From sequence record DRR723986_1367: 38,552 nucleotides of DNA; one strand, 5' to 3'. Of the stretch, positions 5,966-25,773 are shown in pieces. The translations under genes were made by a program, and so were the position numbers. The notes under the pieces are model-generated. The model saw only the letters and a program-made list of their open reading frames with translations. It ran no database searches and had not been told where the DNA came from. Position 1 is the stretch's first letter. The number at the start of each line of letters is the position of its first letter.

Positions 5966-8059
5966 ATGGTCAAACATAAGAATGTATCAGGAAATAGTGT
6001 GATCAAGGCAAGCGCCGCATTGGCACTTACTATCGCTATGCACGGGGGGCTGAATGCAGCTCTTAGTGCGGCAGAACCGGTGCCAAACGGCTTGCAATAC
6101 ACCGATGTTTTCAATTTGGAATATGCCACTGGCCCCCAAATAACACCGGACGGGCAATCGGTTGTTTATGAGCGGCGGGCTATGGATGTGATGACTGATC
6201 GCGTGCGGTCTAACATCTGGTCTGTTGGGCTCGACGGCCAGAACCACCGGCCCATTCTGTCAGGTAAAGCACAGTATAGAATGCCACGCTTTTCGCCGGA
6301 CGGCACACGGCTGGCTTATTTGTCAACCGTGGAAGGCAAAACCCAAATTTATGTTCGTTGGCTGGATAGCGGTGCCACTGCACGGGTAACCGACTTGAAG
6401 GTGTCGCCGTCAAACATCAGTTGGTCGCCGGACGGCAAGCATATTGCTTTTACCATGTTTGCACCCTCGGCTGGCCCTTCGTTGTTTACCATGCCTTCTA
6501 AGCCTAAAGGGGCAAACTGGGCAGGCACCGCGCGTGTGATTGATACCATGACATACCGCATCGATGGTGCCGGGTATTTGCCAACCGGGTTTTCCCAAGT
6601 GTTTGTTGTGCCGTCAGACGGCGGTTCGCCGCGCCAAATCACCAGTGGTAATTTTAACCATAGTGGCACTATTAGTTGGACAGCGGATTCGGCAAATATT
6701 TTAGTTTCTGCCAACCGGAACGCAGACTGGGACATGAACCCCCGTGAAAGCGAGATTTATTCTTTTTCTGTAGCTGATGGCTCAGTGACGCAGTTAACCC
6801 AGCGGGTTGGTCCGGACGCCAATCCGATTGTGTCTCCGGACGGCAGCAAGGTTGCATACACCGGCAATGATGAAAACAACATGTCACACCAAAACGGTGA
6901 CCTGTATGTGATGAACATAGATGGATCTGGCGTGCAAAATCTGACCGCAGGGTTAGACCGGGGCGTGAGTAATGTTCAATGGAACAGTGATGGCACCGGG
7001 CTTTATTATTCTTATAATAATTCTGGTAAAAAGCTGGTGGCTTTCACCAATCTTGCCGGTAATGGCCGTGTTATTACAGACGCCCTTGGGGGCACTGCGC
7101 TTGGGCGGCCCTATGCCAGCGGCACCTACCGTGTGGCACCGGATGGCCGCGTTGTCTTTACTCAAGCCCGCGCCGACCGCCCCGGTGACTTGGCGGTAAT
7201 TGATCGAATCGGGTCAGTGACTGCACTTACCGACCTGAACGAAGATGCGCTCGGCGCGCGGGCCATGAGCCAAGTGGAACGCATTGCGACCAACTCTAGT
7301 TTTGATGGCCGCGAAGTGGAAGGCTGGATTGTCCGGCCCGCCAACTTTGACGCCTCCAAGCAGTATCCATTAATACTGGAAATTCATGGTGGTCCGCACG
7401 GTGCTTATGGCCCGGGCTTTAGTACAGAAGTTCAATTGATGGCGTCACAGGGCTATGTGGTTCTTTACACCAACCCGCGCGGCAGCACCTCATATGGGGC
7501 TGAGTTTGCCAACCTCATTCACCATAATTATCCATCGGAAGATTATGACGACATGATTGATTTGGTGGATGCAACCATTGCGCAAGGGTCAATTGATACT
7601 GATCAGCTGTATGTAACGGGCGGCTCAGGCGGCGGTGTGCTAACTGCATGGATTGTTGGCAAAACGGATCGCTTCCGGGCGGCAGTTGTTGCTAAGCCAG
7701 TGATTAACTGGTCCAGCTTCGTGCTTACAGCGGATTTCAGCGCAATGTTCACCAAATATTGGTTCCCGGACATGCCGTGGAATGAGCCTGAGCATTATTG
7801 GAAGCGTTCACCTTTGTCTCTGGTTGGCAATGTGAAAACACCGACCATGGTAATAAGTGGTGAGGACGATTATCGCACGCCGATTTCTGAGGCCGAGCAA
7901 TATTATAAAGCCCTGAAGCTTGAGGGTGTGCCAACCGCCATGGTGCGTGTGCCGGGCGCAAGCCACGGTATTGCAGGTAAACCCAGTAACTTGATCCAGA
8001 AAATTGGTAATATCATTGGCTGGTTCAAAAAGTTTGAGGGCGATACGCCTGCAGATTAG
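5966..8059 (+). CDS. S9-family serine peptidase (acylaminoacyl/dipeptidyl-peptidase-like), exported, with beta-propeller
   Basis: Signal peptide, repeated SPDG blades, IHGGPH, catalytic GGSGGG / DYRT / ASHG. Start at ATG 5966 after AGGGA. Confidence 0.95.
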   Translation: MVKHKNVSGNSVIKASAALALTIAMHGGLNAALSAAEPVPNGLQYTDVFNLEYATGPQITPDGQSVVYERRAMDVMTDRVRSNIWSVGLDGQNHRPILSGKAQYRMPRFSPDGTRLAYLSTVEGKTQIYVRWLDSGATARVTDLKVSPSNISWSPDGKHIAFTMFAPSAGPSLFTMPSKPKGANWAGTARVIDTMTYRIDGAGYLPTGFSQVFVVPSDGGSPRQITSGNFNHSGTISWTADSANILVSANRNADWDMNPRESEIYSFSVADGSVTQLTQRVGPDANPIVSPDGSKVAYTGNDENNMSHQNGDLYVMNIDGSGVQNLTAGLDRGVSNVQWNSDGTGLYYSYNNSGKKLVAFTNLAGNGRVITDALGGTALGRPYASGTYRVAPDGRVVFTQARADRPGDLAVIDRIGSVTALTDLNEDALGARAMSQVERIATNSSFDGREVEGWIVRPANFDASKQYPLILEIHGGPHGAYGPGFSTEVQLMASQGYVVLYTNPRGSTSYGAEFANLIHHNYPSEDYDDMIDLVDATIAQGSIDTDQLYVTGGSGGGVLTAWIVGKTDRFRAAVVAKPVINWSSFVLTADFSAMFTKYWFPDMPWNEPEHYWKRSPLSLVGNVKTPTMVISGEDDYRTPISEAEQYYKALKLEGVPTAMVRVPGASHGIAGKPSNLIQKIGNIIGWFKKFEGDTPAD

Positions 8060-8109: not shown

Positions 8110-8204
8110 GCAAATATAGCCATGCCTGTTAAGCTATTGATTAGCGAATACGCGTTAAGTGTAAGCGGGTGAAGTATGAAATGAAAAGGCTGGGGAGTAA
8201 TATC

Positions 8205-10292
8205 ATGACGACAGTAATGAGGCTAAAGGTTGGGAATTTTAAATGTGCGCTTGCCGCATGTGTGGTTTTTTCTACTGCCATGTATGCAGCGCCTGTCAGC
8301 GCCGCACCGCCCACACCTGTTGAAAATGGCCTGCAATATCAGGATGTTTTTAATCTTGAATATGCAACGTCGCCGCAGGCAACCCCGGACGGACAGTCGA
8401 TCTACTATGAACGTCGATCGATGGATATTATGACCGACCGTATTGGCACCAATATCTGGACTGTTGATTTAGACGGCGGCAATCACCGCGCGGTGTTGTC
8501 CGGCAAAGCACAATACCGCATGCCGCGGTTCTCTCCGGATGGCACGCGGTTGGCGTACCTGTCGAATGAAGACGGCAAAAATCAGATTTATATTCGCTGG
8601 CTGGATAGCGGAGACACCACACGCTTAACAAACCTTGAGCGTTCGCCGTCGAACATTAGCTGGTCGCCAGACGGTAAGCAAATTGCGTTCACCATGTTTG
8701 TGCCTGAACCAGGTCCGTCATTGTTCAAAGTGCCAGTAAAAAAACCGAAAGACGCCAAGTGGGCTGCTGAAGTTGGTGTGACCGACAAACTGACCATTCG
8801 CCGCAACGGTGCGCCGGGCTATGTGCCATATGGCTTTACCCATGTTTTTGTTGTGCCGACAGATGGTGGCACCCCGCGCCAAGTGACGCATGGCGCTTAT
8901 AACCATAGAGGAGCGGTTTCATGGGTGCCCGACGCGAGTGCATTTGTGATCTCGGCAAACAGAAATGAAAACTGGGACCGCGATGGGCGTGAAAGCGACG
9001 TTTATAAGGTGAGCTTAGCGGATGGCGCGATCACTGCGCTTACCAGCCGTGATGGCCCCGATGGTTCGCCGGTTGTCTCGCCCAAGGGAGACCTCATTGC
9101 CTATACCGGTAATGACGACGACGGCCTGACCCAGCAAAACCGAGATCTATATATCATGAATATGGATGGCAGCGGGGTGCGCAACCTGACCGCAGGCCTT
9201 GACCGCAGTGTGGGCAATGTTCAGTGGAATGCTGATGGGTCAGGGTTGTATTATTCTTATGTTGCATCGGGCAAAAGGGTTGTCGCTTACACAAATTTGG
9301 CCGGTAATGGGCGGGTTATCACAGAAGAATTAGGCGGCACATCCCTTGGTCGGCCGTATGCTGGCGGCAACTACGGTGCTATGCCAGACGGGCGTATCGT
9401 CTTTACCCAAAGGCGCACAGATCGCCCGGCGGACCTTGCGGTTGTAGACCGGATTGGCAATGTAACCACATTAACTGATTTGAATGGTGACGTGATTGGA
9501 CACCGCCGCATGGCAACGGTGGAACGCATCACTGTGAATTCAAGCGTTGATGGTCGCGAGATTGAAGGCTGGCTTGCCAAGCCAGCGGGTTTCGACCCCT
9601 CTAAAAAATATCCGCTCATTCTCGAAATTCATGGCGGTCCCTTTTCGGCATATGGCCCCATGTATAGCAGTGAAATCCAGTTGATGGCGGCGCAGGGCTA
9701 TATGGTGCTTTTTGCCAACCCCCGGGGCAGCACGTCTTACGGCGCTGATTTTGCCAACCTGATCCATCAGAATTACCCGTCAGAGGATTATAACGATCTG
9801 ATGGATTTGGTTGATACCACTGTTGCGCAAGGCGCGGTTGACGAGGGTCAGCTTTACGTAACCGGTGGTTCGGCAGGCGGCATCATGACCGCATGGATTG
9901 TGGGCAAAACCAATCGCTTTCGGGCGGCTGTTGTCGCTAAACCTGTGATTAACTGGACCAGTTTGGTTCTCACATCAGATGCCGGTGTTGGCACAGTGCA
10001 AACCTGGTTTAGCGACATGCCCTGGAATGTGCCGATGGAATATTGGGAGAGTTCGCCCTTATCATTGGTGGGCAATGTAACGACGCCAACAATGGTTCTT
10101 GTTGGGGCAACGGATTACCGAACGCCAGTATCGGAGTCGGAGCAATATTATACAGCGCTCAGGCTAAAAGGCGTGCCAACAACCTTGGTGACGATGCCAA
10201 ATACGGACCACGGCCTGGCGAGTAGGCCAAGCAATCTCATTCGGAAAGTTGGCAACATCATCGCTTGGTTCAAGAAATATGAAAGCGAGTAG
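8205..10292 (+). CDS. S9-family serine peptidase, tandem paralog
   Basis: Collinear with the upstream paralog; IHGGPF, GGSAGG, DYRT, TDHG. Start at ATG 8205 after GGGGAG. Confidence 0.95.
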   Translation: MTTVMRLKVGNFKCALAACVVFSTAMYAAPVSAAPPTPVENGLQYQDVFNLEYATSPQATPDGQSIYYERRSMDIMTDRIGTNIWTVDLDGGNHRAVLSGKAQYRMPRFSPDGTRLAYLSNEDGKNQIYIRWLDSGDTTRLTNLERSPSNISWSPDGKQIAFTMFVPEPGPSLFKVPVKKPKDAKWAAEVGVTDKLTIRRNGAPGYVPYGFTHVFVVPTDGGTPRQVTHGAYNHRGAVSWVPDASAFVISANRNENWDRDGRESDVYKVSLADGAITALTSRDGPDGSPVVSPKGDLIAYTGNDDDGLTQQNRDLYIMNMDGSGVRNLTAGLDRSVGNVQWNADGSGLYYSYVASGKRVVAYTNLAGNGRVITEELGGTSLGRPYAGGNYGAMPDGRIVFTQRRTDRPADLAVVDRIGNVTTLTDLNGDVIGHRRMATVERITVNSSVDGREIEGWLAKPAGFDPSKKYPLILEIHGGPFSAYGPMYSSEIQLMAAQGYMVLFANPRGSTSYGADFANLIHQNYPSEDYNDLMDLVDTTVAQGAVDEGQLYVTGGSAGGIMTAWIVGKTNRFRAAVVAKPVINWTSLVLTSDAGVGTVQTWFSDMPWNVPMEYWESSPLSLVGNVTTPTMVLVGATDYRTPVSESEQYYTALRLKGVPTTLVTMPNTDHGLASRPSNLIRKVGNIIAWFKKYESE

Positions 10293-13950: not shown

Positions 13951-15000
13951 TCATGAACACTCAATATTATGTTTTTTAATGGCGTGGCGTATTTGATCAT
14001 AACTAATTTTTAATTGTCCCGCTGCCGCGCGCTGATTATAGCGCGCATGGATTAAGGCAGTCTCAATCAAGCTCTTTTCATAGTTGGCAACTTCGCTTTT
14101 TAGGTCAACTGGCTGGGTAGCATTGAAGTTAAGGGCTTTTGGTGCGGGCGTGTTATCATGAGGTTCGCGCCCTTTAGCTTGCTCGTTGTCCATGTGGACT
14201 GGCAGCCTTGCAGTCGCTGGTCTGTAAGGGCTTTCGAAAGGATCAAAAACCAAACCACAAACCGGCGCTTCACCGTCCCAGCATGTATATACCGCGCGCT
14301 CTACTACATTCTTCAATTCACGAATGTTGCCCGGCCAGCTGTAGTTTAGCATGGCATCTACCGCCACGTCAGAAAACCCAGGAAACGTGAGCCATTCAAG
14401 TTCATGTGCCATTGCAGCACCAAAATGATTGGCCAGCTCCAGTATGTCTTCGCGGCGTTCACGCAGTGGCGGTACGGTAATAACGTCAAAGGCGAGGCGG
14501 TCTAACAGGTCGTGGCGAAAGGCGCCAGCATCGGCCGCGGCAGGCAGGTCTATATTGGTGGCACCAATCACCCGCACATCAACCTTAACCGTTTCTGTAC
14601 CGCCAACCCGTTCCAGTTCGCCGTATTCAATAACCCGTAAAAGCTTTTCTTGCGCTTGCATGGCCATGGTACCTATTTCATCAAGAAACAAGCTGCCCTC
14701 GTCTGCGGCTTCAAAACGGCCAGCCCGCCTATTACGGGCACCGGTAAAGGCTCCGGGCTCATATCCAAATAATTCGCTTTCCAGCAAGGTCGGTGCCAGC
14801 GCTGCGCAGTTCATTTTTTGAAAGACCTGATCCCACCGCATAGAAAGGAAGTGTAGCCGCGCGGCTATCATTTCTTTGCCTGTACCCCTTTCTCCAACTA
14901 CTAAAAGCGGCCGGTCTAACGGTGCGGCGCGGCTGATTTTGTCCATAAGGTCAAGGAATGCTGGCGAAGAGCCAATTATCTGGTCAGACTGATAATTCAT
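13951..15000 (-). CDS. pspF: Phage shock protein operon activator PspF (sigma54 enhancer-binding protein)
   Basis: GERGTGKE, ESELFG, GAFTGA, LFLDE, DLLDRLAFDV, WPGNIRELKN, C-terminal HTH, no receiver domain; divergent from pspA. Confidence 0.95.
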   Translation of the reverse strand: MNYQSDQIIGSSPAFLDLMDKISRAAPLDRPLLVVGERGTGKEMIAARLHFLSMRWDQVFQKMNCAALAPTLLESELFGYEPGAFTGARNRRAGRFEAADEGSLFLDEIGTMAMQAQEKLLRVIEYGELERVGGTETVKVDVRVIGATNIDLPAAADAGAFRHDLLDRLAFDVITVPPLRERREDILELANHFGAAMAHELEWLTFPGFSDVAVDAMLNYSWPGNIRELKNVVERAVYTCWDGEAPVCGLVFDPFESPYRPATARLPVHMDNEQAKGREPHDNTPAPKALNFNATQPVDLKSEVANYEKSLIETALIHARYNQRAAAGQLKISYDQIRHAIKKHNIECS

Positions 15001-15091
15001 ATTGCTAATATATGGTGAAAAAAACTAAATGTTAGGAATTATTTCTATAAGATGTATATTTAATATCAAAATTAAAATTAAAATATATATA

Positions 15092-15104
15092 TTTCAATGG
15101 TTTA
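15092..15104 (+). promoter_or_regulatory. Putative IHF site
   Basis: TTTCAATGGTTTA, one mismatch to WATCAANNNNTTR, in an AT-rich tract just upstream of the sigma54 promoter. Confidence 0.45.
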
Positions 15105-15120
15105 TAATTTTTTAAAAAAC

Positions 15121-15136
15121 TGGCACGCCTCCTGCT
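15121..15136 (+). promoter_or_regulatory. sigma54 -24/-12 promoter of pspABC
   Basis: TGGCACG-CCTC-CTGCT vs consensus TGGCACG-N4-TTGCW; adjacent to divergent pspF. Confidence 0.85.
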
Positions 15137-15422
15137 ATTAACCCTTCAACAACCCGATTTAGAAGAGGTTGTCCTTAAAAATACGAGAAACTAAGTCACA
15201 GACAACGAGCCAGACAGCAAAAGAAGCGCCCGAGTGTGACAGCGAGGGGTCAACAACAAAAAGCCAAAACAGTAATTGGCAATAATAACGACCAAAAACT
15301 GTGATCAGAAAAAGAAACCAGAAGGTTCAATGAGGATCGCCCACGGAAGTGTCAAATAAGGCCAATGAGCCAGATAAAAATTTTGAGACACATGCGAGGA
15401 TTATAAGAAAGGAACTAAAACT

Positions 15423-16136
15423 ATGGGTATTTTTTCCCGCCTGACAGACATTATTAACTCCAATATTAATTCCATTTTGGATTCAGCGGAAGATCCTGAA
15501 AAAATCATTCGTATGGTTATTCAGGAAATGGAAGACACTTTGGTTGAAGTTCGCTCAAGCGCAGCTAAAACCATCGCGGACCAGAAAGATATCAACCGCC
15601 GTCTCGGTAAAATGGATAAGGCACAGTCTGATTGGGAAAAGAAAGCCGAACTGGCCATTTCTAAAGGTCGCGATGACCTGGCCAAAGGCGCGTTGGTGGA
15701 GAAAGCCAAAGTCGCTGACATGGTTGCCCATCTCACTGAAGAAGCCGCTCACCTTGATGCCGCGTTGAAGCAAAACGAAGAAGACGTGATCAAGCTTGAT
15801 GCAAAGCTCCGTGAAGCCCGCGCTAAAAAGGCGGCACTTGCTGCGCGTCATAAGACAGTATCTAACACGGTTCGAATTCGTAAAAACTTGAACGATAACC
15901 GTATTCAGGATGCATTTGATCGCTTCGATAAAGTAGACGCCCGCATGGACCGTCTGGAAGCTGAAGCAGAATCAATGAACATTGGCAAGGGCCAAACATT
16001 GGCGGAAGAGATTACGAGCCTTGAGGTTGATGATACAATCGAAAAGGAACTGGAACAGCTGAAGGCAAAAGCAAGCGGTACGGCGAACGACAATAAAAAA
16101 GCCGCGACCAAAGCCAAAAAAGCAGCTGCTAAGTAA
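15423..16136 (+). CDS. pspA: Phage shock protein A
   Basis: MGIFSRLTDIINSNIN...AEDPEKIIRMVIQEMEDTLVEVRS; AAGGA RBS. Confidence 0.97.
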   Translation: MGIFSRLTDIINSNINSILDSAEDPEKIIRMVIQEMEDTLVEVRSSAAKTIADQKDINRRLGKMDKAQSDWEKKAELAISKGRDDLAKGALVEKAKVADMVAHLTEEAAHLDAALKQNEEDVIKLDAKLREARAKKAALAARHKTVSNTVRIRKNLNDNRIQDAFDRFDKVDARMDRLEAEAESMNIGKGQTLAEEITSLEVDDTIEKELEQLKAKASGTANDNKKAATKAKKAAAK

Positions 16137-16207
16137 TCAAGGTGCGCGCCTTAGCTTCAGGCATGGGGCGCGCCAACAACAAAAACCCGAATTAAAAGGG
16201 ATCGAAA

Positions 16208-16438
16208 ATGCCAGATGTAATCGGAATCTTACTTTTCACAATCGTCATCCCGCTTTGGATAATTTTCCATTATGTTACAAAATGGAAAACCATGAAGGGC
16301 ATAACCCCGGAAGATGAAGCCTCTCTGGGCGACCTTCGCAACTCTGCAGACCGCTTGGAAGACCGCCTTCGTGTTATGGAGCGGATCATGGACGATGAAG
16401 TGCCAGATTGGAGGAGCCGCCACAATGACAAGTTTTAG
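16208..16438 (+). CDS. pspB: Phage shock protein B
   Basis: N-terminal TM with PLWIIFHY; ADRLEDRLRVMERIMDDEVPDWR. Confidence 0.93.
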   Translation: MPDVIGILLFTIVIPLWIIFHYVTKWKTMKGITPEDEASLGDLRNSADRLEDRLRVMERIMDDEVPDWRSRHNDKF

Positions 16439-16817
16439 AAGAAGCCCAACGCGCCTGTATAAAAATCCACAAAAAGGTAAAATTGCTGGTGTATGTGCTG
16501 GCATCGCTGACTATTTTGATATGAAAGTGGGTGTTGTACGTTTCCTATTCGTACTGGGTGCTTTGTTCACAGGTATTTGGCCACTGGTAATTGGTTACTT
16601 TGTTGCCTCGCTTTGGCTCGACCCTACGCCCGTTGATTTATACGAAGACGAGCAGGAAGAGGAGTTTTGGCGGCAAACCAGAAAATCACCGGACTATACA
16701 GCCGCAGATCTGCGCCGTCGTTTTCGCGACATCGAACGCCGCGCCAGCGATATGGAAGCCTACGTGACCAGCAAGCGATTTAAGTTAGACCGCGAATTGC
16801 GCGCTTTGGAAGACTAG
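16425..16817 (+). CDS. pspC: Phage shock protein C
   Basis: LYKNPQKGKIAGVCAGIADYF PspC domain and MEAYVTSKRFKLDREL. Start at ATG 16425 after GGAGGAG, overlapping pspB. Confidence 0.93.
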   Translation: MTSFRRSPTRLYKNPQKGKIAGVCAGIADYFDMKVGVVRFLFVLGALFTGIWPLVIGYFVASLWLDPTPVDLYEDEQEEEFWRQTRKSPDYTAADLRRRFRDIERRASDMEAYVTSKRFKLDRELRALED

Positions 16818-18900: not shown

Positions 18901-20268
18901 TTAGCCTGTTACGGTGTTGTAGATAATCGAAACAAACACAGCACCAACGGCCACTGGGCAAACATACCGTACTAGGAAATACCAGACACGGAATGTGCTG
19001 TCAGTCATGGCAAGCTCTTCCATCATATTTTTGCGGCTGACGAACCACCCAACAAAGATAGCAGAGAACATGCCGCCAATTGGCATCATGATGTTGTTGG
19101 TCAGGAAGTCTTTTGCATCCAGAATACTGCGGCCGAATATTGAAATTTCAGCAATGACGTTGTCGCCTTGACTAAGGCCAGACAAGACACCCATTGCGAA
19201 AATAAAGCCACTGATCATCAGAGCGATCTTTTTGCGCTCCACACCGGTCTTTTCAGTGACATAAGCCACTGATGGCTCCAATAGTGAGATGGCGCTGGTA
19301 ACAGCGGCAACAACTAACAGGAAGAAGAAAGCGCCGCCAACAAAGGCACCACCGCTCATTTGTCCAAACGCAATTGGTAGGGTGGCAAAAATCAATCCAG
19401 GGCCTTGACCAGGAACCAGGCCATACGCAAATACAATTGGGAAAATCATCAGGCCTGCCATAATGGCCACACCTGTGTCTGCACTGGCAATAATAACGGC
19501 AGATTTACCAATGTTCACGCTGCGCTGCATGTAGGCGCCGTATGTCATAATTGAACCAAGCGCCAATGAAAGCGAAAAGAAAGACTGACCGAGGGCTTGC
19601 AGAGCGACATCAAGGTTAATCTTGGAAAAATCTGGTTTAAACAGGAAGTCGACTGTCGCGCCAATATCACCGACGATACTTGAATAGATAGCCAAGCCAA
19701 TCAGCAGTATAAAAAGCGCAGGCATCAAATATGTTACCGCTTTTTCGAGGCCACCTTCAACGCCGCGCGCCACAATAAACATCGTTAGCGCCATAAAGGC
19801 AGCATGCCAGCCGATCACGGCATACTCGTTGGACAGTAAACCACCAAAGTGTGCGCCTGCCGCTGCCGCATCCATCCCTGTAAATGTACCAGAGATTGCT
19901 TCGAAAAAGTAAGAAACAGTCCAGCCGCCAATAACTGAATAGAAGCTAAGAACAATAACAGCACCAATAACACCGGACCAACCGACAAGAGCCCATAAAG
20001 GACTGCGGCCTTCTTCTTTGGCGATTTTTGCCATAGAGCCAATGGGCGACTTTTGCCCGCGTCGACCAAGAGAAAGTTCGGCGACAAGAATAGGCGTGCC
20101 AACGACAAAGACGAAAAAGAGGTAGATAAGTACAAAAGCACCGCCCCCGCCTTGTCCGGCTTCATAAGGAAATTTCCAAATGTTACCAAGGCCGACAGCA
20201 CTACCGACCGCTGCCATAATGAAAGTCCAACGCGATGACCAGTGCGCTGTTTGTGATGATCCAGCCAT
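18901..20268 (-). CDS. Sodium-dependent transporter, NSS/SNF (LeuT-like) family
   Basis: WSSRWTFIMAAVGSAVGLGNIWKFPY, GGGAF, QSFFSLS, GPGLIF. Start at ATG 20268. Confidence 0.95.
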   Translation of the reverse strand: MAGSSQTAHWSSRWTFIMAAVGSAVGLGNIWKFPYEAGQGGGGAFVLIYLFFVFVVGTPILVAELSLGRRGQKSPIGSMAKIAKEEGRSPLWALVGWSGVIGAVIVLSFYSVIGGWTVSYFFEAISGTFTGMDAAAAGAHFGGLLSNEYAVIGWHAAFMALTMFIVARGVEGGLEKAVTYLMPALFILLIGLAIYSSIVGDIGATVDFLFKPDFSKINLDVALQALGQSFFSLSLALGSIMTYGAYMQRSVNIGKSAVIIASADTGVAIMAGLMIFPIVFAYGLVPGQGPGLIFATLPIAFGQMSGGAFVGGAFFFLLVVAAVTSAISLLEPSVAYVTEKTGVERKKIALMISGFIFAMGVLSGLSQGDNVIAEISIFGRSILDAKDFLTNNIMMPIGGMFSAIFVGWFVSRKNMMEELAMTDSTFRVWYFLVRYVCPVAVGAVFVSIIYNTVTG

Positions 20269-20397
20269 AAGTCCCAAACTCCCCCGAGTATGATTATGGG
20301 TAATAATGAAAACACCGTGCACACACGGATAACTTTGGCTCGCTCCCCAGCCAGCCAAAGCGGTACAAAATTATCTATAATGCAGCTTTACCGCCCG

Positions 20398-21225
20398 CTA
20401 CTGTGATGTGTCAATAACTGCGCAATATTCTTGCTGGCTTTTAACCGAACGACAAAGGCTACTGGCATCGGCTTTTTCACTCACGCGCACACCGAGGCGC
20501 ACAGCCGTACTGCCGCCAACAGTAAGTTCCCACTGATCAATAATACCGGCCAGTGGCGGAAATTTAGCCTCAAGGGTAGAGCGGTTTTTGGTTGCAGCGT
20601 TTATGGAACTGTAGCTGGCCAAGTGAACGAACCATTGCCCCAGTGGAGATTGACTCGATGGTTTGGAAAGTTTGGCCACATCCCGATTATTTGAACGACT
20701 GCCAGAGTTGCGACCAGAGAATCTGATCGGGTCAACCACGCGAATTGGCCCAGAAGGGGCAATGCCCTCATGCAGCCGGGTAGGCGGGGCCAAGTTAACA
20801 TCCATCGCGGTTAGATACTGCGACAGAGCAGCTAATCGGCGCCCAGCTTCATCAACAACCGGTCCATCTGCTAACACGCGGTCAAAGCATCGCGCCTGCA
20901 CGCCATCGTTTGAGTTGGTTTGCATTACGCGGGCATACAATAGCCGTGCGCGGTTTACGGAACCGGCTTCCTCAAGGGCGAGCGCGGTATAAAATCTGTC
21001 TGTGGCAGAAACTAGGGGTTCAGCATTGAGGGCGTCAATTGCTTCTTGTGGGCGACCGTTACATATGGCGGCCTCTAAGTTTGACGATAATGCCTGAACG
21101 GAGCCACCGTTCATGCTTGCTGTAGGCCCTGTTCCTTGCAGGGTGCTGCCTCCACATGCCGCGAGCAAGAAAACCGGTGCCAGTTTCATCAGTGTGGTGA
21201 TTTTTGAATGTTCCTTCGCCCACAT
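20398..21225 (-). CDS. Lipoprotein with helical (TPR-like) N-domain and C-terminal SPOR domain
   Basis: Lipobox FLLAAC; WFVHLASYSS...ASSLCRSVKSQQEYCAV is an alphaproteobacterial SPOR pattern. Confidence 0.75.
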   Translation of the reverse strand: MWAKEHSKITTLMKLAPVFLLAACGGSTLQGTGPTASMNGGSVQALSSNLEAAICNGRPQEAIDALNAEPLVSATDRFYTALALEEAGSVNRARLLYARVMQTNSNDGVQARCFDRVLADGPVVDEAGRRLAALSQYLTAMDVNLAPPTRLHEGIAPSGPIRVVDPIRFSGRNSGSRSNNRDVAKLSKPSSQSPLGQWFVHLASYSSINAATKNRSTLEAKFPPLAGIIDQWELTVGGSTAVRLGVRVSEKADASSLCRSVKSQQEYCAVIDTSQ

Positions 21226-21228
21226 GAT

Positions 21229-21990
21229 CTATTGCCCCTGCGCATCAAGGATAAGGCGCCTGCCACGATTTTGAAGAGGGCGCGCATTGCCCCCTCCGAT
21301 CACGCCTTTGATAAGGTTGATCTGTTCTTTTGAGGCCTGCAGGGGTTGCTTGTATATATACCAGCTCACGCCTTCGCTGCATGGTGGTGTGGTAAGCGAG
21401 CCCATATAGCGGAAATAACTCTTGTCATCGGGCATCAGGTCGCGACCATTTACCAAAACATTGGCGCTTCGGTTCCGCTGGTCTGGCTCAAGGGGCATGT
21501 TGGCGATAAATTCTGCCAGCGCCCGGTTGGTCCTGCCTTCTTTTACTAATGTGACAACCACGGCACGACTACCATCGCTTCTACGGTGCATGAACTGAAT
21601 AGAAAGCGGAAAAGTTTCTCCTGCCACTGTATGCTCGGCGGGCGCCCGAAACACAAAACCATTAAGGCCGAGCATTTTTTTGCCGACGCGCAGAAAGCTG
21701 CCTTGCTCATAGTCCATAGAGATCATCAGCCGGTTATGGGCCAGATTAATGGCGGATACTTTATAGTCTGGGCGCAACCGATGCATAATGGCTGGCTCAG
21801 TGCCCTCAATGTTGATGGGTGACTGGAATTGGCCGGTGGCGCAAATTGAGTTGTTACCTGATAAGGTATGCCAATTTTCCGGGCCGTTTGAGCCGCTATA
21901 GCTCCAATTTTCCTGAGCGGATACAGCGGAAAGCCCCAGCAGTATTGTTGTTGCTAATGCCGCGCCTGATTTAAGCCTTTCTGGCAACAT
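21229..21990 (-). CDS. Alpha-carbonic-anhydrase homolog, predicted non-catalytic, exported
   Basis: WSYSG..GPENW, CATGQFQSPINI, YFRYMGSLTTPPCSEGVSW, NARPLQ. Zn-ligand segment reads GFVFRAPAEH...SIQFMH. Confidence 0.9.
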   Translation of the reverse strand: MLPERLKSGAALATTILLGLSAVSAQENWSYSGSNGPENWHTLSGNNSICATGQFQSPINIEGTEPAIMHRLRPDYKVSAINLAHNRLMISMDYEQGSFLRVGKKMLGLNGFVFRAPAEHTVAGETFPLSIQFMHRRSDGSRAVVVTLVKEGRTNRALAEFIANMPLEPDQRNRSANVLVNGRDLMPDDKSYFRYMGSLTTPPCSEGVSWYIYKQPLQASKEQINLIKGVIGGGNARPLQNRGRRLILDAQGQ

Positions 21991-22008: not shown

Positions 22009-23445
22009 CTAATCCTGTGTCGGTTCCAGTGCCATTGTTAAGGCATTGGCAAATTTTTTAACCGTCATTTCAATCGTCTTGTCCGGCAAGTTGGCAAACC
22101 CAACCAACAGCCCCTGCCTTTTGGGCGCAAACTGGTAACAGTGAGAAACCGGCACCGCTCCGATGCCTGATTGTCGTGCCAAATTCGCCAGTGCCTCGTC
22201 GTTCAATCCATTTCTTTGCGCTTCTTCTGCGACATAAGCCAGTAGATGCAGACCTGCATCTGAAGGCTGAAATTTTAAGAATCGCTTCAAGTAAGTGTCG
22301 GCAAAATTGGTGAATAAATCCTTACGTTTGGCGTGGACAAGTCTCAGCCGCCTGATGTGGCGCGTGAAGTCACCGTCTTCCATGAAAGCATTGAGAGCAA
22401 TTTGGCTGCTAAGAGCAGGGAAACTGTCTATGGCGCTGCGCAGCTCAGTCACTGGTTTAACCATGGGCTTTGGCAACACCAGATAGCCCAGCCTAAGCGC
22501 AGGGAATAACGATTTAGAAAAAGTGCCGCCGTATATAACCCGCTGGCCACCATCAATGCCTTGCAGGCTGTTCAGTGGATGGCCAGCATAGCGAAATTCA
22601 CTGTCATAATCGTCTTCAAATATCAGGCTGTCTGTTTGCCGGGCCCAGTTTAAAAGCTCCAACCGCCTATTATGCGGCATGGTATAGCCAAGCGGATACT
22701 GACGCGACGGACTGGTTACCAGAAGGGCTTTGTTTTCCTCTGGCACCAACGCGCCTTTATCATCAACTCCAGTGTAGTGTACGGGGTGGCCTGATGCCTT
22801 GGCAGAGGCCAGCATGCCATCAAAACCCGGGTCTTCAAGAATGATCGGCGCTGTTGCCTGCAAAACTGATTTGACCAGCAGATACAGACCTTGTTGCAGA
22901 CCTGAGACAATCATGATCTGTTCGGCGTCACAAACTGCACTGCGTGATGCCTGTAAATAGGCGGCAATGCTGTGGCGCAGCGGTTCATAGCCCATGGCAT
23001 CGTTGTGGTACATCAGATCGGTATTAAGTTTTCGCATTGCACGCCCGGCTGTACGGGCCCACGCTGCGACAGGAAACTGGTCAAGCGCTGGCATGCCCGA
23101 TAACAACGTGTGTTCAGGCCGGGGAGGAGAAGCTGTGCCGTTCGTTTGGGGTAACCTCGCAGTTTGAATCAGTTGGTCCGGTGTTGATGCCGTCACATAG
23201 GTGCCTGCCCCCCTGCGTGTTTCCAGATAGCCCTCTGCTACAAGTTGATCATAGGCCTGCACAACGGTGATGCGCGCAACACCAAGCCTTGCGGCCAGCA
23301 TGCGACTTGCTGGCATGCGGGTGCTGCCGACAAGGGTGCCGTCTAAAATTGAGGTGCGAATTTTTGTATGGAGCTGCCGTTGTAATGTTTTGCCCGCCCG
23401 TGGGTCTAATCCGCTGCCCCAAAGTGCTGTAAATTCATCTTTCAT
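22009..23445 (-). CDS. MocR/GabR-family PLP-binding transcriptional regulator
   Basis: GntR HTH (RMPASRMLAARLGVARITV), EDDYDSEFRY, GTFSKSLFPALRLGY. Confidence 0.95.
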   Translation of the reverse strand: MKDEFTALWGSGLDPRAGKTLQRQLHTKIRTSILDGTLVGSTRMPASRMLAARLGVARITVVQAYDQLVAEGYLETRRGAGTYVTASTPDQLIQTARLPQTNGTASPPRPEHTLLSGMPALDQFPVAAWARTAGRAMRKLNTDLMYHNDAMGYEPLRHSIAAYLQASRSAVCDAEQIMIVSGLQQGLYLLVKSVLQATAPIILEDPGFDGMLASAKASGHPVHYTGVDDKGALVPEENKALLVTSPSRQYPLGYTMPHNRRLELLNWARQTDSLIFEDDYDSEFRYAGHPLNSLQGIDGGQRVIYGGTFSKSLFPALRLGYLVLPKPMVKPVTELRSAIDSFPALSSQIALNAFMEDGDFTRHIRRLRLVHAKRKDLFTNFADTYLKRFLKFQPSDAGLHLLAYVAEEAQRNGLNDEALANLARQSGIGAVPVSHCYQFAPKRQGLLVGFANLPDKTIEMTVKKFANALTMALEPTQD

Positions 23446-23538: not shown

Positions 23539-23760
23539 ATGGCGCTGGAACTTACTTTTGGTCGAACCACATTTTCGGTACGAAGGCGCCCCGTTAGGCA
23601 AGTGGGCAAGGCAAACTTGTCTGCACAAGGGAAAAGCAGCTTTCTATCAGCCTATGTAAAAATTTTTAACGGCACATGGGAAGCAAAAGCGGGCGCCTTT
23701 TTCCCCAAACAGCTTTCGGCAAAACGAGAAAAAACAGAACTGGATAAAAAAGATGTCTGA
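23539..23760 (+). CDS. Small basic hypothetical protein (73 aa)
   Basis: ACAGGAAAG RBS; first ORF after the MocR operator; stop overlaps the next start (ATGTCTGA). Confidence 0.55.
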   Translation: MALELTFGRTTFSVRRRPVRQVGKANLSAQGKSSFLSAYVKIFNGTWEAKAGAFFPKQLSAKREKTELDKKDV

Positions 23761-24424
23761 CACCGTGAGGGCGAAATTTGCCGCTAATGATCGTAATCGA
23801 GTTCGGCGCGGCCTCAAACGCGCTGTTTATGACAAAGAGTTGGTTTACGCCATCATTGATAGCCATTTCTTATGCCATGTGGCCTTTGAAGTGGAAGGTC
23901 AGCCCTATGTTATGCCAACATCGCATTGGCGCGACGGCAACAAGCTTTATTGGCACGGTTCGTCAAAAAGCATGATGATCCGACATCTGGCTAAGGGCAA
24001 CCCGGCCACCGTTGCGGTAACTCAACTAGATGGCCTGGTTTTGGCACGGTCAGCCTTCAGCACCAGCGTGAATTATCGCTCTGTTGTGGCATATGGCACG
24101 CCGCGCCTGATTGAAGATGAAGGTGCTTTTAATTATCACATGGAACGCTTTTTTGAGATGCTGGCACCGGGGCGTTGGCCGCAGTTGAGAGCAATGACAG
24201 AAACTGAGCGCAAAGCGACAGGCTTGCTGGAAATGGAAATAGAAGACGCCAGCGCAAAAGTACGTGCTGACCCACCAGGTGACGGCGACGAAGCAGATTT
24301 TCCAATCTGGGCCGGGGTGGTGCCAATAAGCATGCGTCGGCATAAGCCTGTGTCTGCACCGGAAGGCGAAACTGCGCCATTAGACCACGGCCTGCTTACG
24401 GCTTATGAATTCCCAAAAAGCTAG
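23753..24424 (+). CDS. Pyridoxamine-5'-phosphate-oxidase-like flavin-nucleotide-binding protein (NimA-like)
   Basis: RAVYD...CHVAF, LYWHGS, DGLVLARSAF..SVNYRSVV, KVRADPPGD, WAGVVP. Confidence 0.88.
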   Translation: MSDTVRAKFAANDRNRVRRGLKRAVYDKELVYAIIDSHFLCHVAFEVEGQPYVMPTSHWRDGNKLYWHGSSKSMMIRHLAKGNPATVAVTQLDGLVLARSAFSTSVNYRSVVAYGTPRLIEDEGAFNYHMERFFEMLAPGRWPQLRAMTETERKATGLLEMEIEDASAKVRADPPGDGDEADFPIWAGVVPISMRRHKPVSAPEGETAPLDHGLLTAYEFPKS

Positions 24425-24453: not shown

Positions 24454-25773
24454 TTATTTGTCCAGCGCGCCATCATCAATGGCAAGGATGGCATTAACCA
24501 AAACATCTGCACCTTTGGCCATGGCGTCCGCCGTGGTGAATTCGTTGGGCGAATGGCTAACACCACCTACCGATGGCACAAAAATCATGCCGGTGGGGGC
24601 AATATGTACCATGTCTTGCGCATCGTGGCCCGCACCGGACGGCAAATAGCGGTAACTATAGCCAAGCGACTGAGTCGCAGATTCGATGATTTTGCGCATG
24701 CGCGGGTCAGTAGGTGCAGGTTCAGACGCCACATCAATTTCCTCAAAATTGATCAGCACATCCGACTTTGCAGATATCTTTTTAGCGGCCACCTCAATCG
24801 CTGCAAAAACCTTGTCGATTTTACTTTGTTGCAGGTCACGAATTTCAAGGCTCATTTCCACCCTGCCGGGAATGACATTGGGCGCACCGGGAAAAGCCTG
24901 AATGCGGCCAACTGTTGCTACTTGCCGCCCGTCCATTTCAAGCGCAATGCGGTTTATTGCAAGGGTCAGTTCAGCCGCAGCGACCATGGCATCACGCCGG
25001 TTGTCCATGGCGGTTGTGCCGCCGTGGTTGGCATAGCCTTTAAGCGTGACATCCCACCAGCCGATTCCAACAATTCCTTCGACCACGCCAATATCCAGCT
25101 TTTCTTCGTCGAGAATGCCGCCTTGCTCAATATGCAGCTCAATAAAGGCTTTATATTTGTCCGTGTTGACTTTAGCGCTGGCGATGTCAGCAATATTACC
25201 GCCGATATAATTTGTGCCGTCGGCAATAGAGCGGCCACTGGCGTTAACCACAGACAAGGCGCTTTCTTTCAGATGGCCGCGCATGGCAAGCGAACCCACA
25301 AGCCCGCCTTCTTCGTTGGAGAAAACCACCAGCTCAAGCGGGTGATTGGTTTGAATGTTGGCTGCATTCAACAGATCAATGGCTTCCATTGCAGCGATAA
25401 CACCAGTGGGGCCATCATAGTTGCCGCCACCTGGCACAGAATCGGTGTGCGACCCGAACAAAATGGGCTTGGCATTGGGTGTGCGGCCTTCGCGGCGGGC
25501 GAAAATATTAGCAGCTGCATCAATGCGTACGCTCAAACCCATAGCCTCAAGTTCATTGATGATATAGGCTCGGCCTTGCAGATCAGCCTCTGTGTAGGCA
25601 ACCCGGTCAACACCGCCATCAGCATTTTTGCCAAATTGTCCAAGAGCCTTGATACGGCTTTCCATGCGCTCGGCGCTGGCCTTTGGCGTGCCATCAGCCG
25701 CTCTTGCGGGCAATCCAATGGCCATCAGAATAGCCAATATAACAGTAATATTTTTAAGCCCGAAAGTTGTCAT
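24454..25773 (-). CDS. M20-family Zn amidohydrolase (allantoate amidohydrolase / N-carbamoylase-like) with signal peptide
   Basis: GSHTDSVPGGGNYDG, NEEG, ELHIEQG, NHGGTT, SGAGHDA, GVSHSPNE. Confidence 0.92.
   Translation of the reverse strand: MTTFGLKNITVILAILMAIGLPARAADGTPKASAERMESRIKALGQFGKNADGGVDRVAYTEADLQGRAYIINELEAMGLSVRIDAAANIFARREGRTPNAKPILFGSHTDSVPGGGNYDGPTGVIAAMEAIDLLNAANIQTNHPLELVVFSNEEGGLVGSLAMRGHLKESALSVVNASGRSIADGTNYIGGNIADIASAKVNTDKYKAFIELHIEQGGILDEEKLDIGVVEGIVGIGWWDVTLKGYANHGGTTAMDNRRDAMVAAAELTLAINRIALEMDGRQVATVGRIQAFPGAPNVIPGRVEMSLEIRDLQQSKIDKVFAAIEVAAKKISAKSDVLINFEEIDVASEPAPTDPRMRKIIESATQSLGYSYRYLPSGAGHDAQDMVHIAPTGMIFVPSVGGVSHSPNEFTTADAMAKGADVLVNAILAIDDGALDK

Follow-up and report, generated by a model that had tools for sequence, protein, structure and literature searches.

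A zinc-less alpha-carbonic anhydrase-like protein encoded beside a lipoprotein gene in Kordiimonadales, a probable exported pseudoenzyme

The carbonic anhydrase-like gene and its zinc site

Sequence record DRR723986_1367 is a stretch of 38,552 nucleotides, referred to here as the window, which carries on its minus strand a gene for an alpha-carbonic anhydrase (CA)-like protein in which all three histidines of the catalytic zinc site are replaced. The gene is followed by that of a lipoprotein (Table 1). An original prediction, made from the letters of the window without database searches, had read the product as a CA-related pseudoenzyme whose fold is kept for a non-catalytic exported role. Ligand loss and selection together support that reading well: judging from its own sequence and those of its relatives, the protein is very probably acatalytic and selectively maintained.

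The predicted intact alpha-CA-type open reading frame (ORF) was confirmed, and a GGAGG motif can be read from the sequence a few bases upstream of the ATG. Residues 35-244 match PF00194, the eukaryotic-type, i.e. alpha, CA family of Pfam (EC 4.2.1.1), with E 6.5e-26 and 91.9 bits against a cut-off of 27 bits. A search of the PDB with the protein returned 240 distinct sequences at E<=1e-3, headed by the alpha-CA of Persephonella marina (6im0_A, E 1.2e-47) and then by the bacterial periplasmic alpha-CAs 6eki, 8w7x, 4c3t, 4xz5, 4x5s, 4g7a, 5hpj, 8dpc and 1kop. An AF2 model built on 48 sequences of the zinc-less clade described below has a mean pLDDT of 73.4, with a core above 90, and its best Foldseek match is again 6im0_A (E 7.9e-22; TM 0.67-0.76). 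The protein is homologous to the alpha-CA domain by sequence and fold, far beyond chance. NCBIfam holds no family matching either this protein or the downstream lipoprotein, and relatives of the CA-like protein are labelled 'carbonic anhydrase' in public records.

The signal peptide claimed in the original prediction is borne out when the sequence is read by eye: a basic n-region and a hydrophobic core are followed by VSA, with cleavage at about residue 26, and the mature start 'ENWSY' aligns with the mature starts of bacterial alpha-CAs. We infer a periplasmic location for the product.

Residue numbers of human CA II are used below for the canonical positions, which we take to be correctly placed by motif match. 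In three alignments to solved alpha-CAs from the PDB search the ligand-bearing stretch runs without gaps. Val113 and Arg115 stand opposite the two His of 'FHFHAPSEH', Ser130 and Gln132 opposite the Glu and the His of 'EAHFVH', and 'HNRLM' opposite 'NNGHT', which puts Leu88 in place of the proton-shuttle His. The register on which the prediction of Val, Arg and Gln as ligand replacements depended, and its reading of the shuttle motif, are thus upheld by the alignments.

Further replacements in the window protein are Leu141 to Arg142, Gln92 to Gly111 and the Val121 equivalent to Met, and Asn86, the equivalent of Asn62, is the sole kept member of the His64/Asn62/Gln92/Glu117 set. The protein carries neither the three His zinc ligands expected of an alpha-CA nor an intact proton-shuttle His64 with its Asn62/Gln92/Glu117 network. 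It would be no CO2 hydratase, because Val113, Arg115 and Gln132 replace the zinc histidines and the shuttle His is also gone. The structural motifs said to be retained are indeed present in the alignments: Cys50/Cys204, QSPINI, GSLTTPPC, NARP, Glu119-His120 and Thr200 vary little or not at all, whether the set is degenerate or canonical. The Thr199-Glu106 gate is kept as Thr200 and Glu119, and the pocket wall as Val144, Leu199, Val208 and Trp210.

Bacterial periplasmic alpha-CAs of known structure, those of P. marina (6im0), Thermovibrio ammonificans (4c3t), Sulfurihydrogenibium (4x5s/4g7a) and Neisseria gonorrhoeae (1kop), share with the window protein the fold, the length, 33-38% identity, the signal peptide, the Cys pair, the QSPI/SLTTPPC/NARP motifs and the Glu106/Thr199 equivalents (E 1e-47 to 1e-36 by sequence; Foldseek E 1e-22 to 1e-18). 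What sets the window protein apart from them is the replacement of the three zinc His, of the shuttle His and of the residues equivalent to Glu117 and Gln92, along with Arg at three cavity positions and a basic instead of a near-neutral character. Its mature form has 18 Arg among 227 residues (7.9%), a net charge of +6 and an isoelectric point (pI) of 9.5, against a median of 4.8% Arg and pI 6.6 in 45 canonical relatives; the median pI of the zinc-less clade is 9.0. The prediction was therefore right to call the protein Arg-rich.

Table 1. Features of the window, with the carbonic anhydrase-like gene and its replaced residues first (numbering of the replaced residues as in human CA II)
Feature	Position	Strand	Basis or remark
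Zinc-less alpha-CA-like gene (P0001)	21229..21990	minus	Intact ORF, ATG start, 253 amino acids (aa), no internal stop
Signal peptide, residues 1-26 (MLPERLKSGAALATTILLGLSAVSA, cut before QE)	21913..21990	minus	Read by eye
Val113 (GTG), replaces first zinc His (His94)	21652..21654	minus	Alignment
Arg115 (CGG), replaces second zinc His (His96)	21646..21648	minus	Alignment
Gln132 (CAG), replaces third zinc His (His119)	21595..21597	minus	Alignment
Ser130, replaces Glu117	21601-21603	minus	Alignment
Leu88, replaces proton-shuttle His64; adjacent Arg87 replaces Gly63	21727..21729 (Leu88 codon)	minus	Alignment
Lipoprotein gene, 275 aa, starts 3 nt after the CA-like stop	20398..21225	minus	ORF; lipobox LAAC, Cys24
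MocR/GntR-type regulator, 18-nt gap upstream of the CA-like gene	22009..23445	minus	PF00392, E 4e-13
Pyridoxamine-5'-phosphate-oxidase-family gene, divergent from the MocR regulator	23753-24424	plus	PF12900, E 2.4e-38
SNF symporter gene, two genes downstream of the CA-like gene	18901-20358		
M20/M28 peptidase gene	24454-25773	minus	PF01546, E 4e-29
'orf454', 454 aa	24436-25800	plus	No Pfam match; synteny marker
PspF-like sigma-54 activator	13951-15000	minus	Phage-shock cluster
PspA	15423-16136		Phage-shock cluster
PspC-domain protein	16314-16817		Phage-shock cluster
Tandem paralogous S9 prolyl-oligopeptidase/DPP-IV-like genes, 711 and 707 aa	5924-8059, 8169-10292	plus	Same domain order

The zinc-less clade, its orthologues and selection

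The best 120 of 3,031 database matches were aligned with the query, giving 121 rows. Ser130 and Gln132 together with the absence of the first His mark 57 of these rows, and they are found in all 55 of P0001-P0055, which range from 90% down to about 54% identity; among the best 120 of 3,031, canonical relatives with all three ligands (H-H-H) begin at about 45% identity. The clade members are assigned to Kordiimonas and Kordiimonadaceae, marine Alphaproteobacteria of the order Kordiimonadales. Gln132 and Ser130 are each present in 57/57 members, against His in 44/44 and Glu in 40/44 canonical relatives. The other two ligand columns vary within the clade: column 113, His in 45/45 canonical relatives, holds Val in 18, Thr in 15, Ser in 13 and Asp in 5 members besides other residues, and column 115 (n=57) holds Arg in 31, His in 25 and Lys in one. 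At the shuttle position the clade has Leu (24), His (11), Ile (7) or Val (6), where 43/44 canonical relatives have His; at position 87 it has Arg in 42/57, where 44/45 canonical relatives have Gly.

An alignment of 48 clade members has 46 invariant columns, with Glu119, His120, Thr200 and His135 among them. When 57 clade members were compared with 44 canonical relatives column by column, constraint was found to be lost at the Asn62, His64, Thr65, Gln67, His94 and Val121 equivalents and at residue 162, which is Ile in the window protein and Trp in 40/44 canonical relatives. Changes fixed in the clade are Glu117 to Ser, His119 to Gln and Ser105 to Ala, along with residues 41, 72, 186 and 232. 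New constraint appears at residues 63-72 (GTEPxxMxRL), 166-171 (PLEPDQ), 186-190, 226-232 and 242-253 (R..R.ILDAR.Q). These newly constrained motifs are common to all Kordiimonadales orthologues, including the H-H-H forms, are partly present in the canonical L031 and L032 and are missing from the outgroups. Since the H-H-H orthologues share them, the new constraints arose before the zinc site was lost. The same motifs were considered as a signature of docking to the lipoprotein and rejected, Rhodospirillales CAs that are paired with the lipoprotein being without them.

Orthology was examined in a locus scan with one genome per species, which gave 80 loci, of which L001-L032 belong to Kordiimonadales. 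The window and L001-L032 share a syntenic block of GNAT, M20 peptidase and pyridoxamine-phosphate-oxidase-like genes and, divergently, MocR, CA or CA-like, lipoprotein, SNF, SufE, MFS and PspC/PspA genes, and the window gene is the syntenic orthologue of true alpha-CAs. Among the window and the 32 loci, ten have H-H-H and 23 do not, 13 of the latter being without any ligand His. The H-H-H forms are L031 and L032, with a fully canonical second shell, and eight Kordiimonas proteins, including those of K. marina, K. gwangyangensis and K. aestuarii. Partly degenerate are H-H-Q (2), K-H-Q (K. laminariae), N-H-E, D-H-Q (2), T-H-Q (2), S-H-Q and V-H-Q (K. aquimaris). The forms without His are V/T/I-R-Q in the window, L001-L008 and L029, T-R-Q in L012 and L028, and E-R-Q in K. 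sediminis. The original prediction had named histidines in close orthologues as a finding that would speak against it; the close relatives P0001-P0055 all share the substitutions described above, and the histidines are met only in more distant syntenic orthologues.

In most of the eight Kordiimonas H-H-H orthologues the hydrophobic CO2 pocket has become polar although the metal site is intact; the pocket of K. marina is near-canonical, and K. gwangyangensis has Asp at the Val121 position. The Val121 position is Asp in six of them (L018, L020, L021, L022, L023 and L025; CA gene at about 6935-7729), and the Leu198 position is changed in five, to Glu in L018, L020 and L023, to Gln in L022 and to Met in L025. 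These polar-pocket forms may be zinc proteins with altered activity.

In a quick maximum-likelihood tree the window protein falls in a well-supported ten-row V/T/I-R-Q clade (SH-aLRT >=95) that is sister to V-H-Q; a well-supported Ser/Gln clade of 16 rows encloses the two, its remaining branches being D/T/S-H-Q or T-R-Q. The parsimony minimum on this tree is at least two changes for the third His, at least three for the first and at least four for the second (His96), and an order of loss from the third His to the first and then to the second is suggested by these sequences. Several independent first losses of the triad were considered and are not established: at least two changes are counted, yet the AU test does not reject a single non-H-H-H clade (p 0.37). 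In the genomes of five relatives PF00194 has exactly one match each, at the syntenic place, so the zinc-less protein is the lineage's sole alpha-CA homologue and not a spare paralogue. Beta-class CAs (PF00484) are present in four of these five genomes. In genome G001 (about 4.3 Mb), the only alpha-CA homologue is a V-R-Q form and PF00484 has no match; gamma-class and other CAs were not searched.

Zinc-site degeneration is recurrent. In a representative library, which gave 12,348 matches headed by long multi-repeat CA proteins, 57 of 145 new proteins (>=450 aa, multi-domain) were excluded before ligand states were counted. At least one zinc ligand is missing from 20 of the 93 nearest single-domain cluster representatives; a lost third His is Gln in 13/14 of them and a lost second His is Arg in 4/5, and a quick tree of 103 rows requires at least 12 changes of ligand state. 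P0122-P0132 in the same library reach lengths of 863-3,007 aa, and in each of them 4-15 stretches match alpha-CA. Single ligand losses (H-H-Q, Q-H-H, S-H-H and D-H-H) were also seen in other alphaproteobacterial lineages, at L036, L042, L044, L033 and L056.

Selection was estimated as the pairwise ratio of nonsynonymous to synonymous divergence (dN/dS) by the method of Nei and Gojobori (NG86). Against seven relatives the window gene has dN/dS of 0.027-0.098 in six pairs, with dS of 1.6-3.0, near saturation, and a saturated dS in the seventh. The least saturated pairs of the zinc-less subclade are L086-L001 (dS 0.51, ratio 0.059) and L002-L003 (dS 0.50, ratio 0.11), the range for the CA-like gene being about 0.03-0.14; the Kordiimonas H-H-H group has a median of 0.16 (20/28 pairs). 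The replaced residues are held through synonymous turnover: across 14 loci Arg115 is encoded by five codons (CGC, CGG, CGT, CGA and AGA), Arg87 and Ser130 by four each and Gln132 by two (CAA and CAG). The CA-like gene is under purifying selection and is not decaying. The relaxed selection on this copy that the original prediction had set out as a contrary outcome is not seen in the ratios of 0.03-0.10 between the window gene and six of its relatives.

These results bear on two other explanations. That the gene is a functionless relic about to be lost, or the finding an artefact of alignment or register, would be most improbable. A dying enzyme gene would indeed first show the loss of its catalytic ligands, but the frame is free of stops in the window and in all 32 syntenic loci, dN/dS stays at 0.03-0.14, the 46 columns noted above are invariant across 48 clade members, and invariant motifs on either side anchor the register, as do the gapless alignments to three solved CAs. 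That the protein is still an enzyme, whether an alternative metal site supports weak CO2 hydration or esterase activity or a new activity needs no metal, is improbable as well. Strong purifying selection, the invariance of Glu119, His120, Thr200 and His135 and the potentially metal-binding D/S-H-Q or N-H-E of some relatives would agree with it. Against it, Val, Arg and Gln at the ligand positions offer no usual metal ligand, Leu stands in place of the shuttle His, clade members differ at pocket positions, and animal proteins without these His are devoid of CA activity according to passages of two papers (PMC2873310; PMC6609565). An exported, disulfide-bonded protein of alpha-CA fold that is unable to hold the catalytic zinc, i.e. 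a pseudoenzyme, would fit these observations. Its ancestor would have been a true periplasmic alpha-CA, the zinc-less form would have arisen in place, in the same gene slot, and a second function, reflected in the new constraints that preceded zinc loss, probably made catalysis dispensable.

The downstream lipoprotein and a candidate binding role

With starts assigned heuristically, the lipoprotein gene begins within -20 to +15 nt of the CA or CA-like stop in 32/34 loci; L017 and L026 fall outside this range, and their assigned starts are doubtful. The CA-lipoprotein pair was also found in four Rhodospirillales loci, with H-H-H in L034, L035 and L038 and H-H-Q in L036. Because the pair is present with canonical Rhodospirillales CAs, the pairing is older than the loss of zinc.

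In an AF2 model of the lipoprotein (pLDDT 81.8), residues 44-140 form a helical domain that includes a beta-hairpin, residues 150-180 are a disordered linker, and residues 196-272 fold into an alpha/beta domain. In a wide structure search the N-terminal domain resembles TPR modules at Z 8-9.8, a range that is common for helical repeats and thus indicates a fold type and not a relative. The C-terminal domain superimposes on the SPOR domain of RlpA (6i0n_A) with Z 8.0 and a root-mean-square deviation of 3.0, 75 of 77 residues being aligned. Foldseek with the lipoprotein model gave no match at E<=0.001, the nearest being CwlC (E 0.017) and the RlpA SPOR domain (E 0.026). The Pfam SPOR family (PF05036) matches the window lipoprotein at E 0.0034 with 18.1 bits, under the 21-bit cut-off; among 33 orthologues, 15 are matched at E<=0.01, the best at 6e-5. 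When the profile of the lipoprotein family was run against 201 alphaproteobacterial genomes, 70 were matched, only the Kordiimonas genome at full length and the other 69 in the C-terminal SPOR part save one with the N-domain alone; the full TPR-SPOR architecture is therefore lineage-restricted. Proteins are the ligands of TPR modules, and septal peptidoglycan is that of SPOR domains. The TPR-like domain may accordingly be a protein-binding module and the SPOR-like domain a peptidoglycan-binding one, and the lipoprotein may tether the CA or CA-like protein. A complex prediction for the two mature proteins gave a score of 0.03 and a mark of 0.34, which counts neither for nor against binding.

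Arg87, Arg115 and Arg142 occur together at positions of the former active-site cavity in 24/57 clade members, and in P0001-P0022 they are present in 21/22, 22/22 and 20/22 respectively. In the window subclade they accompany hydrophobic residues at 113 and 134, and could hold an anion. The suggestion of an anionic ligand in the original prediction is in part sustained by these conserved cavity Arg and by the basic shift; it is weakened by the other subclades, which fill the cavity differently. Judging by these residues, the cavity is rebuilt in more than one way across the clade.

Our reading, which we favour by a modest degree, is that the product is a non-catalytic periplasmic binding protein that acts with the TPR-SPOR lipoprotein and whose Arg-lined cavity is a candidate anion site. 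The CA-like protein would bind non-catalytically in the periplasm in concert with the lipoprotein whose gene starts 3 nt further on, and in the window subclade the three Arg, which would line the former cavity, could hold an anion.

Several points weigh against this reading or narrow it. The AF2 model of the CA-like protein is only moderate, with pLDDT <50 at residues 46-57, 199-206 and 235-253. In a 16-member set only eight of 120 pairs have dS <2, with a median ratio of 0.11, and the other 112 are saturated (>2). His to Arg and His to Gln are single-base changes, and their recurrence may partly reflect mutational accessibility. The new motifs predate zinc loss and so leave the zinc-less state itself unexplained. 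Synteny in the order covers all 14 kb of the neighbourhood, which makes adjacency within Kordiimonadales weak evidence, and independent support for the gene pair is limited to the four Rhodospirillales loci. Another subclade has Ser or Asp at 113, His115, Lys134, Trp142 and Glu146, and such differing cavity residues argue against a single ligand pocket common to the clade.

A stand-alone, metal-free receptor for bicarbonate or another anion (carboxylate, sulfate or phosphate), binding or sensing it in the periplasm independently of the lipoprotein, is a possible but unlikely alternative. It would be in keeping with the Arg triad of 24/57 members, each Arg of which is kept in P0001-P0022 through synonymous changes, as well as with the retained Thr199/Glu106 equivalents, the retained wall of Val143, Leu198, Val207 and Trp209 equivalents, and the rise in pI from 6.6 to 9.0-9.5. 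Against such a receptor, other subclades have other cavity residues in place of the Arg triad, the positions that lost constraint are exactly those of the cavity, and no receptor-specific transporter or signalling gene is linked beyond the general synteny. A rather speculative extension would place Arg in zinc's stead as the core of a metal-free bicarbonate or anion receptor that docks on the TPR-SPOR lipoprotein and links inorganic-carbon or envelope status to septal peptidoglycan. If this were true, an Arg-for-zinc receptor would form a bacterial signalling or scaffolding module comparable to animal CA-related proteins (CARPs), and its stepwise birth from an enzyme would be preserved in living, partly cultured Kordiimonadales.

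A different partner is offered by the gene of the SNF (sodium:neurotransmitter-family) symporter, which follows the pair in 30/32 Kordiimonadales loci, the sequences of L002 and L011 ending too early. By analogy with the non-catalytic boosting of the transporter MCT1 by animal CARPs, described in passages of PMC6609565, the CA-like protein could be a transport helper of this symporter, which we consider very improbable. The whole region being syntenic, the linkage is not specific; the Rhodospirillales loci with the CA-lipoprotein pair show no SNF match; and the lipoprotein and SNF genes are separated by a hairpin resembling a terminator, a kind of site that is, however, no commoner than in shuffled sequence. 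A binding role with the lipoprotein remains the reading we prefer.

Genomic surroundings, known counterparts and implications

The regulator gene upstream of the CA-like gene is found at this place in 25/32 Kordiimonadales loci. The divergent pair of MocR and pyridoxamine-phosphate-oxidase-like genes is likewise kept in 25/32 loci, and such an oxidase-like gene is the more usual target of MocR-type regulators. The ORF orf454 was rejected as a real gene: it is an antisense shadow of the minus-strand M20 peptidase gene, despite tblastn matches of 37-53% in relatives. The phage-shock cluster at 13951-16817, some 4 kb away from the CA-like/lipoprotein pair, shows conserved synteny throughout the order.

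Acatalytic relatives of alpha-CAs are well known in animals. Arg and Gln are typical replacements of zinc His in CARPs too, and the partners of animal CARPs, the IP3 receptor, neurexins and contactin, have no counterpart here. Passages of PMC2873310 describe CARP VIII, X and XI and the CA-like domains of RPTP beta/gamma as inactive, at least one zinc His being replaced. The window protein resembles the CARPs and the RPTP beta/zeta and gamma domains in its alpha-CA fold, in its replaced zinc His, of which they have lost one to three, and in its conservation by selection; the roles of the animal proteins are in non-catalytic binding (passages of PMC2873310 and PMC6609565). RPTP-gamma CA-like domains match it at E 3e-15 over residues 116-226, and human CAs at about 1e-13 to 1e-15. 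It is unlike animal CARPs in its probable periplasmic location, in the nesting of its clade within bacterial alpha-CAs and in the pairing of its gene with that of a lipoprotein. Descent shared with animal CARP subfamilies is not indicated: its nearest relatives, solved or not, are bacterial alpha-CAs, and its clade arises among Kordiimonadales orthologues in trees that were built without animal CARPs. On the best reading of these sequences, the window protein is a bacterial, independently evolved counterpart of animal CARPs.

Dioscorin, a yam tuber storage protein (4twl), puts the alpha-CA fold to another use and matches the window protein at E 9.9e-31. Poxvirus D8 is another alpha-CA-fold protein from outside animals with a use other than canonical zinc catalysis. 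Dioscorin and D8 are eukaryotic and viral, with different biology, and their patterns of ligand loss were not compared with that of the window protein. A full-text literature search of open papers gave no description of a bacterial acatalytic alpha-CA or of a CA-SPOR link, and other papers may exist. The available sections of a 2017 review of bacterial CAs contain neither 'acatalytic' nor 'lack', and their four occurrences of 'inactive' or 'devoid' concern other matters.

The zinc-less form is a new bacterial variant of the CA-fold pseudoenzyme, with an unusually complete evolutionary series and a conserved partner. Because zinc-less proteins are named 'carbonic anhydrase', counts of alpha-CA genes in surveys of carbon cycling or CO2 capture would be too high. 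In the Kordiimonadales, natural orthologous forms, some of them from culturable species, lead step by step from enzyme to pseudoenzyme, and with this series the succession of events by which a pseudoenzyme evolves and the idea that Arg replaces the metal are directly testable.

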